DNA from: Cirrosporium novae-zelandiae
Taxonomy: Eukaryota
Assembly (NCBI GenBank): GCA_026023565.1
Contig: JAPETS010000002.1
Location: forward strand, 1,240,001 to 1,304,000
Reading direction: 5' to 3'
DNA length: 64,000 nt
The translations under genes and the position numbers were made by a program. Below are positions 14,769 to 18,965 of the stretch, one piece after another. The notes beneath the pieces are model-generated. The model was not told where the DNA came from. It did no database searches and saw nothing but the letters and a program-made list of their open reading frames with translations. Positions within the stretch are counted from its first letter, which is position 1, and each line of letters starts with the position of its first letter.

Positions 14769-16672
14769 TTAGATCTTAACCGCACTCTCAATCGCCTTCC
14801 TCTTCTTCTCTTGATGAGCAATAGCCTTAGCTCCCATAATCCCTCCACCCCAATGTCGGCGGGACTCCTCATACTTGTCTGTATACCCTTCCTTGACGGT
14901 AGAAACAAGTTTCGCGAGCTCGGATTTGTCTTCGCCGCGTACTTCGGTGAGGGAGACGACGGCTGCGGTCTTCTTGTGCACGAGGGTGCCTAGGCGCGCT
15001 TTTCCTTTTATGATGGCGTAGGGGACGCCCATTTTTCGGCAGAGGGCGGGGAGGAAGACTACTAGTTCGATGGGGTCGACGTCATTTGCGATTAGCTAGG
15101 AAGGGGGTGGGGTTAGTATTTTGGATGGATGGGTGGGGATTGAGTTGGGAGGTGGGGGTTGAAGGGGGAACGTACAACGAGGGAGGTCTTCTTGTTTTCG
15201 ATTAGGCCGACGACGTGGTTCAAGCCGTATTTAATCTGAGGGGTATATGTTAGTTATGGGCCGGTTCATTTGGTTTGGTTTGACATTTGTCATTTTGGAT
15301 GATGGGGGAGGGTTGTGGGGGGTACTGACAACATATGGCTTCTTGCTAACGTCTTCGGCTTTCTTGCCCTGCATGAAATTATTAGCGTTTGTTTCAACTT
15401 TTTTGGTGGATGATGCGGGAAAAAGAACTACCTCTTGGATAGCTGAGGCTTCCTTGGTCAATCTTTCTTTCTTTTCCGTCTTCGATTCTGGCCTATATTT
15501 GCTGAGGAGCTTGAATGCCTGGGCGGCGGTGTTGCGGTCGAGGACGTGGCCTAATTTCATACAATGTGAACTTGCCGTCCAAAGCAACAGATACAAGGTG
15601 TGTGAATCTTACTGAATTCTGTTTTACGGTTAGCATTCCGTTGGACGACTAGGGTAAAAATGGGAAGACTCACGGGCAATGGCAGGGGGAACCTTCAATC
15701 TCATGTCTACACATATTGGTTAGGATTTCCCGATTGCCGTAGGAGGTAGGCAAAACACACTGAGGATCCTAAAGTAGACGTTTAGTAATTAATTTCTTGT
15801 TGGAAGGGGGAATGGGACACTCACTTTCGCTGGCGTTGGAGGCGGACATATTCTGGCCACTTTACCATACGCTGGATAGGGAAGGAAACGTTAGTTGACC
15901 TCAAAGGGTGAAGGAGGACACGGATGATACACACCGACAAGTTTCGTTTAGGCTGAATATCTTGACCGATTCCAAAGTTTTTGGAACGCTTCTCGGAGAG
16001 GGGGTTCTTTGCCTGCTTCTGCAAAAAGCTCAATCTAGTGTTCTTTGAAGAACATATTGGAGGTCATTGAGAGCTAGCTGTACCTTTGAAGCGCCGGCCT
16101 TGCCTTGAGGAAAGCTACACACCACATAAGCAGATAATCAAATATGATAACCTGCCAGACTTACGGCGCCGCGGCGACTTTTTTTCCACTCTTAGCGGGT
16201 GCCTGCAGTAGACCCAAGACCCGTCAGCAAAATCAATCACTCAATCGGTGTCTTGTTTTAAGAGGTCGTTGCTAATGAGAACAGCGACCGAACGATGATC
16301 GAGGGAAAAGGCTCTTGGCTCTGTAAAACTATCCAATTGTTTAGTAATCAAGTACTTTCATACCAGAGTTAATTAGGAGTGTCATACCTCTTTGAAACCA
16401 ACAGCTAGTATTTTTGAGTCTCAAGCTCTTTCCCCTCGACCATCGAAACGTTCGCATGTCCTCCAGGCGTCTTCTCCATTGCTAACACAGAGACCTTGTT
16501 GCCAAGGCATGCGAGAGCTCCGGTGGGACTCAAGAATACATGATGAATGTTGGAAAGATGGATATGTCGAAAACATTGTGGGAAATGTAGGTTGGACTGA
16601 AGTCGTGCCGTAGGAAATGGATCCTCATGGCGATGACATTGAATGCAAAACGAGGTTCGGCTTGCTTACCAT
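14769..16672 (-). CDS. RPL8: 60S ribosomal protein eL8 (L8/L7a), 12 exons
   Basis: Spliced product [31 protein letters not shown]...[53 protein letters not shown]...[22 protein letters not shown]...RHWGGGIMG. Eleven GT-AG introns; exon 1 codes only ATG (16670-16672). Confidence 0.96.
16264..16540 (-). ncRNA. Structured RNA element inside RPL8 intron 1 (cis-regulatory element or intronic ncRNA, class unknown)
   Basis: 18-bp helix 16428-16445/16293-16310, 13-bp helix 16527-16539/16408-16420, CCUUG-GCAA-CAAGG tetraloop hairpin 16494-16507, hairpin 16264-16289. Confidence 0.6.
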
Positions 16673-16840
16673 TTTTGCTGAATGTTAGTAGTCGTCTGGG
16701 TGGAAACGAGAAATTGAAGTTGGACAGTGGAGAGGAATGGAACAGAGTTGTAATCATGAAGGTTAGATTTTGGTTGTGTGAAATTTCGCGCCAAGACTTT
16801 GCGGGCTGTTTACCTCGCTTTGAACTTTGCCTATTTTGTC

Positions 16841-16985: not shown

Positions 16986-18275
16986 CTAGGTAACCCCCAA
17001 ATCAACAGCCTCCATCTGTCTTCTCAAAGTTGAGCTCCCCTCCTCATCCTCAACGCTTAGTTCAATAGCCATCTTCGGTCGATTCTTATTAAGACCCTCA
17101 AGAAGCATGCAAGCCTTGCAAATACGTTGACTTGAGAGATAGCCACACTTTTCACATGTCCCCATCCGCTGTTTTTGCACCTTGCGAGATTTCTTTTTGT
17201 CGTGTTTGCCATTGCTGGGATGTATCCTATCATGGCGTTGGCCATTGACGGCCAGGGGTGATATTATTTCCGTCTCTCTCTCCTCGGCGGCTTCATTCTC
17301 TTTCAGGCGCTTCTCCATTTCCACCATTTCGCCTCCGCTGCTTCTTCCGTTTTGAGATCCACAGCCACCTTCTCCTCCTTCCTCGACGGTGGCTGCAGCC
17401 GGTAATCCATTACCATTTCCTGAGCATTGAGACGACCCTGCGACTTCTGAAGGAACTAATTTGGCCATGTCTTCTCCACTCCTGACAACATCCAAGATGG
17501 CGCTTGGTCTCACCCTTTCGAGGTTCTTAATAAGTTGTCTGGCACTGCCTCTAAAGGCCTCTGGACTGTAGATACACTCTGTGCTAAAGTAGTCCAGCCT
17601 TTTATGGTGCGCGTAGAGCACAATCTCCTTCTCGTATGCATACTTCAACGGCTTGCTTCTTTTGATTTCGCTAGCCGTAGATGAGGTAACGATACTTGTT
17701 GCACGCGCCAATCTTGGTAAGTCTCCTCGCAATAGATTCATCAGGACGGTCTCCGCGACGTCATCAGCATTATGTCCTGTCACCACATGCTTGATCCCTA
17801 ATTTTGCCGCCCCGCGATCGAGAGCCTGCCGGCGAAAGACACCGCAGTAGGTACAATTCCCTTTCTTGCCCACCTGCTCAACTACCTGATCCATAGTCCA
17901 GCCATAGAGTTGGTTATAGCCCACGATCTCGAGGGGCATGTTATATTGTAGCGCATTTCTCTTAACAGTCTCTAGACTATCATCCCGGTAGCCTTTGATT
18001 CCCTCGTCTATAGATAACAGAACCAAATCCAAACCGTAGTTGTGACGCTCATTCAATGTTTTCAAGACGGATGCAAGGACGGTAGAATCTTTTCCACCTG
18101 AGGCCCCAATCGCGATGCGCTCGCCGGGGTAAAAGAGATTATTGGTAGTGATTGTGTGATGAATTTCAGTTTCGAATACTTCGATAAAACATGCTTTGCA
18201 TAGTTTCTGCTGGTTCTTGGGCCGTATTATGAGGGCGCGAGAGGTCTTGCAGATGGCACATAGTGTGGGTGGCAT
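16986..18275 (-). CDS. NCS6: Cytoplasmic tRNA 2-thiolation protein 1 (Ncs6/Ctu1)
   Basis: PP-loop [22 protein letters not shown]- and C-terminal CxxC zinc fingers; single exon. Confidence 0.96.
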
Positions 18276-18621: not shown

Positions 18622-18858
18622 AGCTCTGTGAGTATTCACCTCCCTTTACCCCATACTTTTGCTAATAACTATCGCAGCTTTGCCTTTTGGCTTAGATCAA
18701 GTGTAGTATCTGTTCTTTTCAGTTTAATCTCTGAAATGGTTCTAAGGAACCAAACATTGATTAATCTTATTTTTGGCATTGGTGAGAATGGCCTCTGTGC
18801 TTGCGCATGTCTTCTTACACTGTGTCCCTGGTATTACACTACCTCCAGGTGACGCGAA
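18622..18858 (+). ncRNA. U2: U2 spliceosomal snRNA, interrupted by a spliceosomal intron (18628-18677)
   Basis: CTTTGCCTTTTGGCTTAGATCAAGTGTAGTATCTGTTCTTTTCAGTTTAATCTCTGAAA (stem I, branch-pairing GTAGTA, stem IIa), Sm site ATTTTTG near 18769-18775, stem-loop IV CCTGGTATTACACTACCTCCAGG. The exact 5' and 3' ends are approximate. Confidence 0.95.
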
Positions 18859-18965
18859 TTCTATCTTTTCATCATCTACTTCGGCTTGTCTGGAGATTTG
18901 GGGAAGAGGGTTTTTGAGTGACGAGATTTGTGATCAGGATGTGATGAGACGGAAATTCTCGCTTA

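Follow-up and report, generated by a model that had tools for sequence, protein, structure and literature searches.

The first intron of the gene for ribosomal protein eL8 (yeast Rpl8 / mammalian L7a type) in a 64,000-nucleotide stretch of the Cirrosporium novae-zelandiae genome (contig JAPETS010000002.1, positions 1,240,001 to 1,304,000; referred to here as the window) is predicted to fold into a three-way junction that covers its own branch point and 3' splice site. A junction of the same topology, conserved and supported by covariation, is present at the same place in the eL8 first introns of related fungi. We tentatively favor the reading, which we hold at somewhat short of an even chance, that the window structure is a strongly diverged derivative of this putative cis-acting splicing element, in which one of the three arms (P2) has been expanded. 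The evidence is presented below, together with the considerable body of comparisons that does not agree with it.

The eL8 first intron and its predicted fold

The window eL8 gene has 12 exons that, when joined, encode an uninterrupted product of 264 amino acids (aa), with the last exon matching Pfam PF01248 Ribosomal_L7Ae (E 1.3e-14). The product shares 64-86% identity with those of 80 eL8 loci from metagenomes that were retrieved with the last exon as query, and which constitute the relatives referred to throughout. Exon 1 is the ATG alone (16672-16670). The gene and its first intron (467 nucleotides, nt) are located as follows.

14769..16672, (-) strand: eL8 gene; 12 exons, 11 introns, 264 aa, spliced open reading frame (ORF) free of stops
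16203..16669, (-) strand: eL8 intron 1; 467 nt, GUAAGC...CAG, phase 0, directly after the ATG

A sequence-only reading of this DNA had noted the unusual length of intron 1, which the 12-exon gene model confirms, and had put the other ten introns at about 50-80 nt; these measure 50, 65, 63, 56, 54, 55, 62, 63, 94 and 80 nt, such that the estimate holds for nine and fails for the one of 94 nt. There are also two micro-exons of 8 nt (15768-15761) and 6 nt (15618-15613) on the (-) strand, in addition to the 3-nt exon 1. The window gene is unusually intron-rich, as most relatives are intronless between the exon encoding NPL...GIGQD and the last exon (with a spacing of ~313 nt in many loci). Reading directly through a retained intron 1 gives a stop after 15 codons, and an unspliced transcript therefore cannot make eL8. 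The intron itself contains only mechanical ORFs of 25-93 aa on both strands, none of note.

When the ATG, intron 1, and 10 nt of exon are folded without constraint, the minimum free energy (MFE) structure contains helices P1, P2, and P3 closing a single three-way loop in which 14 nt are unpaired. The predicted junction occupies 16468-16201 and lies over the branch point and the 3' splice site. Its components, together with other elements of the intron, are as follows (a colon within a sequence marks the exon boundary).

16464..16468, (-) strand: P1 5' strand GCCUG, paired with CAG:GC in the MFE structure
16201..16205, (-) strand: P1 3' strand CAGGC, comprising the 3' splice-site CAG and the first two bases of exon 2 (Ala codon GCA)
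16277..16463, (-) strand: P2, an irregular 187-nt hairpin directly adjoining P1
16428..16445, (-) strand: 5' arm of an 18-base-pair (bp) helix, CGAUGGUCGAGGGGAAAG; from the fold, an inverted-repeat search, and pair probability
16293..16310, (-) strand: 3' arm of the 18-bp helix, CUUUUCCCUCGAUCAUCG; from the same three sources
16321..16387, (-) strand: intron-like unit in the P2 loop, GUAUGA ... UUACUAAAC ... UUUUACAG; 67 nt, direct reading
16268..16276, (-) strand: junction strand J23, AUUAGCAAC; MFE structure
16211..16267, (-) strand: P3, a 57-nt hairpin with GACC/GGUC, CAAGAC/GUCUUG, CCG/CGG, and AGUGA/UUGCU
16206..16210, (-) strand: junction strand J31, UACUG; MFE structure
16493..16508, (-) strand: GCAA-tetraloop (GNRA) hairpin GCCUUG-GCAA-CAAGGU, upstream of the junction; pair probability 0.87-1.0

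Pair probabilities were calculated in this narrow context and in a wide one of 661 nt that includes the 5' untranslated region (UTR), exon 2, and intron 2. From its base outward P2 is composed of GAGGACA/UGUUCUC, GCGA/UCGC, CG/CG, the 18-bp helix, GCUU/GAGC, and a folded distal part, and the basal pairs have probabilities of 0.84-1.0. P3 (0.79-1.0) encloses the branch-site word GCUGAC (16228-16223), and both P2 and P3 stay at 0.79-1.0 in the 661-nt context. The 5 bp of P1 have probabilities of 0.80-0.98 in the narrow context.

The 18-bp helix is real, non-random, and dominant in the predicted ensemble. It was reported from the sequence alone as an uninterrupted pairing of 16445-16428 with 16310-16293, and we find the same 18 contiguous pairs (89% complementary as DNA), both of the non-Watson-Crick pairs being G-U on the transcribed strand, with probabilities of 0.96-1.0 in both contexts. 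A search of the 64 kb window with the 18-bp arm, allowing up to 3 mismatches, returns only these two sites where 0.04 are expected, and two arm matches were reached in none of 100 shuffles. The intron as a whole has an MFE of -139.7 kcal/mol (z = -3.45), and none of 100 shuffles is equally stable.

The other pairings proposed in the sequence-only reading fare differently. The GNRA hairpin is present and strongly predicted. The UCGCAUG/CAUGCGA helix exists as sequence, but competition from the base of the long hairpin leaves it with a pair probability of 0-0.02, and the hairpin at 16289-16264 can be drawn but loses both of its arms to other helices in the MFE structure. A 12/13 helix seen by direct reading (16539-16527 with 16420-16408) lies inside a 40-nt inverted pair that is 70% complementary; it crosses the 18-bp helix, and the program's probability of 0, which a nested-structure program returns by construction, neither supports nor refutes it.

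A conserved junction in the eL8 first introns of related fungi

Among the relatives, 46 loci have an acceptor AG directly before codon 2, and in 41 of these, corresponding to 35 distinct sequences, there is an ATG:GT donor 202-358 nt upstream (median 233); the first intron of locus L032 is 415 nt. A long first intron is thus a trait of the family. The 3' 120-160 nt of the relatives' introns include blocks of near-invariant sequence, and a three-way junction is present in the single-sequence MFE structure of 19 of 33 relatives by a strict criterion, the same as that applied to the shuffles of the window intron described below.

In the relatives, P1 is formed by GGCU with AG:CC, that is, the 3' splice site and two exon bases of a Pro codon, and is separated by one unpaired base from P2, which begins with GAG, ends with CUC, and has a variable stem, often with a GNRA-like tip, for a total of 24-52 nt. 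J23 is UUUA, UCUA, UUA, or UUAC. P3 starts with GAG followed by an internal loop and by AAAGAAGA paired with the pyrimidine tract UCUUCUUU, and closes with CUC; its distal hairpin contains the branch word CGCUGAU. J31, the strand between P3 and P1, is AAUGAY, and in all 55 complete distinct relatives it contains [A/U/G]AUGA.

The conservation of this junction is supported by covariation. The full structure was derived from single-sequence folds and then checked by counting pairs in the alignments. R1, a covariance model of this structure, matches 67 of the 80 eL8 loci (E <= 1.2e-6, 32.6-151.9 bits); several of the 13 loci without a match are cut off upstream or resemble spliced copies. In an alignment of 58 distinct rows that was itself fitted to R1, 88.7% of cells are paired compared to 41-53% with slid partners, and 32 of 39 pairs have changes on both sides, which none of 500 shuffles reaches. 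A plain MAFFT alignment without such fitting gives 84.1% paired versus 42-53%, with two-sided changes in 19 of 39 pairs, and RNAalifold run on it recovers only P1 and two short helices. Individual examples include GGG/CCC at the base of P2 in L072 and L031, and in L032 both GGA/UCC at the base of P3 and GCCU/AG:GC in P1 (Ala, GCA). In L079 and L031 the P1 pairing is preserved by a register shift. P1 thus follows codon 2, be it Pro (CCN) or Ala (GCN), as indicated by GGCU/AG:CC versus GCCU/AG:GC and by the register shifts.

The junction is not confined to a single arrangement: in L034, L037, L038, and L052, direct reading places the intron containing it in the 5' UTR just upstream of the ATG. 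Many relatives also have, 5-25 nt upstream of P1 (alignment A1, columns 32-42), a semi-conserved box reading G-UGAUGA / GUGAAGA; taken with the AAUGA strand, it is reminiscent of the paired boxes in kink-turn (K-turn) RNAs.

Explanations for the window intron

The window intron shares its position with those of the relatives (phase 0, after the ATG), and its predicted fold has the same topology in the same place. P1 of the window, GCCUG/CAG:GC with Ala (GCA), has the same G-to-C change as L032, in which codon 2 is also Ala. The window P2 starts with GAG and ends with CUC beside P1, followed by AUUA, where the relatives have GAG...CUC followed by UUUA or UUA. Among 250 dinucleotide shuffles of the interior of the intron, 52 form a 4-bp helix over the AG and the next two bases, but in only 5 does such a helix close a three-way junction. 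The best match of the covariance models inside intron 1, although not significant (3.6 and 2.5 bits), falls on P3 and is aligned to the P3 of the model. From these structural predictions we infer the homology of the window fold to the relatives' junction, as well as any effect on splicing. If the window structure does derive from the relatives' element, P2 would have expanded about five-fold, the 18-bp helix would be the middle of P2 and a lineage-specific extension of that arm, and the conserved AUGA junction strand would have been lost. The fold would hide in cis the branch point, the 3' splice site, and the stretch between them, and splicing of intron 1 would depend on opening or stabilizing it.

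A substantial set of observations weighs against such a derivation. In the 661-nt context the probability of P1 falls to only 0.24-0.29. The best match of R1 to the window intron scores 3.6 bits (E 0.3, 491 nt searched), and a broader model, R2, does no better at 2.5 bits. Comparison of the intron with the 80 loci by blastn reaches E 0.46 at best, a search by nhmmer with four profile pieces finds no match inside intron 1 when run across the window and none on the intron alone, and Smith-Waterman alignments to three consensus pieces have p values of 0.18, 0.65, and 0.81. The [A/U/G]AUGA junction strand is absent from the window, which has UACUG instead, as is the purine-rich/pyrimidine helix AAAGAAGA/UCUUCUUU, with CAAGAC/GUCUUG found in P3 in its place. 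The individual helices listed in the sequence-only reading are not conserved in the relatives either, the homologous arm being 24-52 nt in 55 relatives versus 187 nt in the window. The figure of 2% for three-way junctions in the shuffles depends on a criterion picked after the fold had been seen. In two relatives (L022:3329-3480 and L036:1007-1174) the branch point and 3' splice site are separate from the junction and lie 25-45 nt downstream of it, so its function must go beyond the masking of splice signals.

We also considered a canonical copy of the junction lying upstream, with the long hairpin inserted into its P3. Resemblances can be seen by eye (GUCUCU..UUAG..AGAAGAC at 16494-16469, two CUUGAG boxes, and CUCAA at 16418), but the Smith-Waterman comparisons (p = 0.18-0.81) lend them no support and this idea was dropped. 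Separately, intron 3 contains at 16073-16059 on the (-) strand the sequence CUCUCAAUGACCUCC, a close copy of the end of the relatives' intron 1 and the start of their exon 2 (CUCAAUGA[YAG]CCUCC). It drives the best model match of the region, at 16153-16055 (9.1 bits, E 0.05 in 3 kb; 8.3 bits, E 0.028 in 701 nt), and its 8-mer alone occurs six times in the window. This copy could be left over from a rearrangement of the 5' end, could mark a second site, or could have arisen by chance.

The failure of the covariance models and of all sequence comparisons on the window, the missing AUGA strand, and a P2 that is three to eight times longer than that of any relative would be expected if the canonical motif had been lost and the long hairpin were specific to this lineage and without homology to the junction. 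The inverted repeat would then be a neutral insertion, either palindromic or like a miniature inverted-repeat transposable element (MITE), or a generic 'zipper' that brings the 5' splice site of an over-long intron effectively closer to its branch point. Stems that shorten distance in this way are used by long yeast introns, and in the window the 5' splice site and branch A are 445 nt apart, of which the domains at 16574-16469 and 16463-16277 would remove ~290 nt. A search of the 64 kb window found no further copy of the 18-bp arm or of the 187-nt hairpin, which does not favor an insertion, and the presence of both mismatches as G-U on the sense strand is weak evidence in the same direction (1 chance in 4 if they are transitions). 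This explanation also has to accommodate the placement of P1 over the 3' splice site and of P3 over the branch site, just as in the relatives, an arrangement seen in 5 of 250 shuffles, and a GCCU change that fits the Ala codon as it does in L032; we regard it as doubtful, while giving it serious weight. The branch site and 3' splice site are hidden in the predicted fold whether the structure is a diverged junction or an insertion.

Two further explanations have less in their favor. The P2 loop contains a donor-like GUAUGA, the branch word UUACUAAAC that is also found in intron 5, and UUUUACAG, all noted by direct reading, with a spacing of 67 nt that is typical of the introns of this gene. The unit at 16387-16321 could be spliced in a nested manner, or its AG (16322-16321) could serve as an alternative 3' splice site to give unproductive transcripts, the helices choosing between sites; joining the ATG to 16320 leads, by direct reading, to a stop after ~20 codons, and unproductive eL8 isoforms are described for animals in the available text of a review (PMC8047918). 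However, AT-rich introns commonly contain splice-like words of such length and the 67-nt unit has no counterpart in the relatives, making this quite unlikely. More improbable still is a stable RNA encoded by the intron, whether a small nucleolar RNA (snoRNA), for which introns of fungal ribosomal-protein genes are common hosts, or a long hairpin processed into small RNAs, for which the ~40 bp stem should be long enough for a double-strand-specific ribonuclease. The only CUGA D-box word found in the intron by direct reading is at the branch site, and a scan of 16100-16800 against Rfam 15 at E<=10 returned a single noise match, to IMPDH, at 13.6 bits against a gathering threshold of 95.4. None of the families in Rfam, including C/D and H/ACA snoRNAs and the fungal motifs held there, comes near its gathering threshold in the intron, and the loci of 12 relatives give no match at all (E <= 1). 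The conserved element of the relatives overlaps splice signals, which fits a cis element. The sequence-only reading had offered an intron-encoded non-coding RNA as one of two interpretations, and it finds no support here; a new RNA gene in intron 1 is unlikely.

Its other interpretation, an eL8-sensing splicing switch, gains support insofar as this intron position is structured in the relatives (67 of 80 loci) with the same topology predicted in the window, and falters insofar as the models fail on the window itself. A role in cis for the intron 1 structure in splicing is plausible, given the structured position in related fungi and the shared predicted topology. The earlier interpretation is therefore partly supported overall, with a cis element plausible and an RNA gene unlikely, and with its suggestion of eL8 sensing drawn by analogy with the feedback loops of other ribosomal-protein genes.

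Genomic surroundings, known systems and possible role

A complete gene for the U2 spliceosomal small nuclear RNA is located at 18671-18863 on the (+) strand (Rfam RF00004, 153.1 bits, model positions 1-192), ~2 kb upstream of the eL8 gene and on the opposite strand. The end of another gene lies at 16986-17400 on the (-) strand, the same as eL8, with its ORF stopping ~310 nt before the eL8 ATG; direct reading shows CxxC...CxxC cysteines at the C-terminus of its product.

The eL8 protein is named L7a or L8 depending on the annotation. The relatives' junction has probably already appeared in print as a candidate motif without a known function. The 'rpl7-l8-s3' motif (Li & Breaker 2017, BMC Genomics 18:785, PMC5640933) is described in the available portion of that paper as having 29 representatives from 25 species of Pezizomycotina, most of them within introns of the genes for ribosomal proteins L7 and L8, with no function assigned. 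This description fits P2 and P3 (AAAGAAGA) of the relatives' junction in 67 of 80 loci, and in that portion of the text it mentions neither a helix over the 3' splice site nor an AUGA strand, both of which the relatives' junction has. Judged by the prose description the two are probably the same, whereas the window intron itself does not match the models of the relatives' junction. The relatives' junction gives no match to Rfam 15 in 12 loci at E <= 1, a full-text literature search for the motif name found it in PMC5640933 only, and the available text of a later screen (PMC8216456) mentions neither L8 nor L7a. A literature search on splicing autoregulation of eL8 gave no report of fungal eL8 feedback among the matches listed.

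The closest functional parallels are in yeast, where L30 (L32 in older papers) binds a structure formed by its own pre-mRNA, as summarized in the part of PMC5640933 available, and Rpl22 inhibits splicing of the RPL22B intron, according to the text available for PMC4838235. These loops resemble the window in involving a ribosomal-protein gene with a first-intron structure that overlaps splice signals, and L30 and eL8 share the L7Ae/L30e fold family (the Pfam match reported here, and the accessible text of the review PMC5061560). They differ in that the yeast feedback has been shown experimentally whereas the window element is a predicted fold, and in that the L30 site involves the 5' splice site whereas the window fold covers the 3' end of the intron. 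The human and C. elegans L7A/eL8 genes produce unproductive splice forms sensitive to nonsense-mediated decay, as stated in the available part of a review (PMC8047918); the gene family and the level of regulation are the same as in the window, but the organisms and gene architecture differ and, so far as that text goes, no common RNA structure is known.

Proteins of the L7Ae family bind K-turns and k-junctions, according to the sections available of PMC5061560 and PMC10573300, and compared with the K-turns described there the relatives' strand P3-CUC / AAU / GA / Y / AGCC-P1 has a similar order of helix, three unpaired nt, G-A, and second helix, with the third arm on the opposite strand as in a k-junction. 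Only the bulged-strand half of a K-turn can be assigned, as the partner G-A was not found and the GA considered for that role, at the P2 base, shows Watson-Crick covariation (L072, L031). Of two registers drawn by hand, the first is contradicted by that covariation at the base of P2, and the second by L032 and by the lack of covariation beyond the G-A positions. The likeness is therefore a lead only. At the window junction strands AUUAGCAAC and UACUG no K-turn arrangement was found, and the AUGA strand is absent. By precedent and by the K-turn-like form of the relatives' strand, eL8 or another L7Ae-family protein may be the ligand.

A more extended proposal, which we consider unlikely as a whole, is that the eL8 first intron acts across filamentous ascomycetes as a k-junction-like sensor for an L7Ae-family protein (eL8 or Snu13), the binding of which would hold the branch point, pyrimidine tract, and 3' splice site fixed within the three-way junction and turn off productive splicing. 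The window would then contain a remodeled sensor that has lost its protein-binding AUGA strand and in which the 187-nt hairpin serves as a protein-independent clamp or thermometer acting on the same signals.

Feedback of ribosomal-protein genes through structured introns is, to our knowledge, well documented for only a few yeast genes. For the window alone the finding is of a plausible, unproven cis-regulatory fold, and an effect in cis on eL8 output through splicing would be the natural mechanism, since the branch site and 3' splice site are buried in the predicted fold and an unspliced message can be read for only 15 codons before a stop. If it is conserved across filamentous ascomycetes, a feedback element in eL8 would add a case in which the 3' splice site, branch point, and pyrimidine tract all lie under a single fold, and in which there is covariation between an intron helix and an exon codon (Pro or Ala at position 2). 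The window would be a useful outlier, retaining the position and predicted topology of the element while having lost the junction sequence and having an arm that is five-fold longer, and setting it beside its canonical relatives would reveal which of the element's parts are functionally required.

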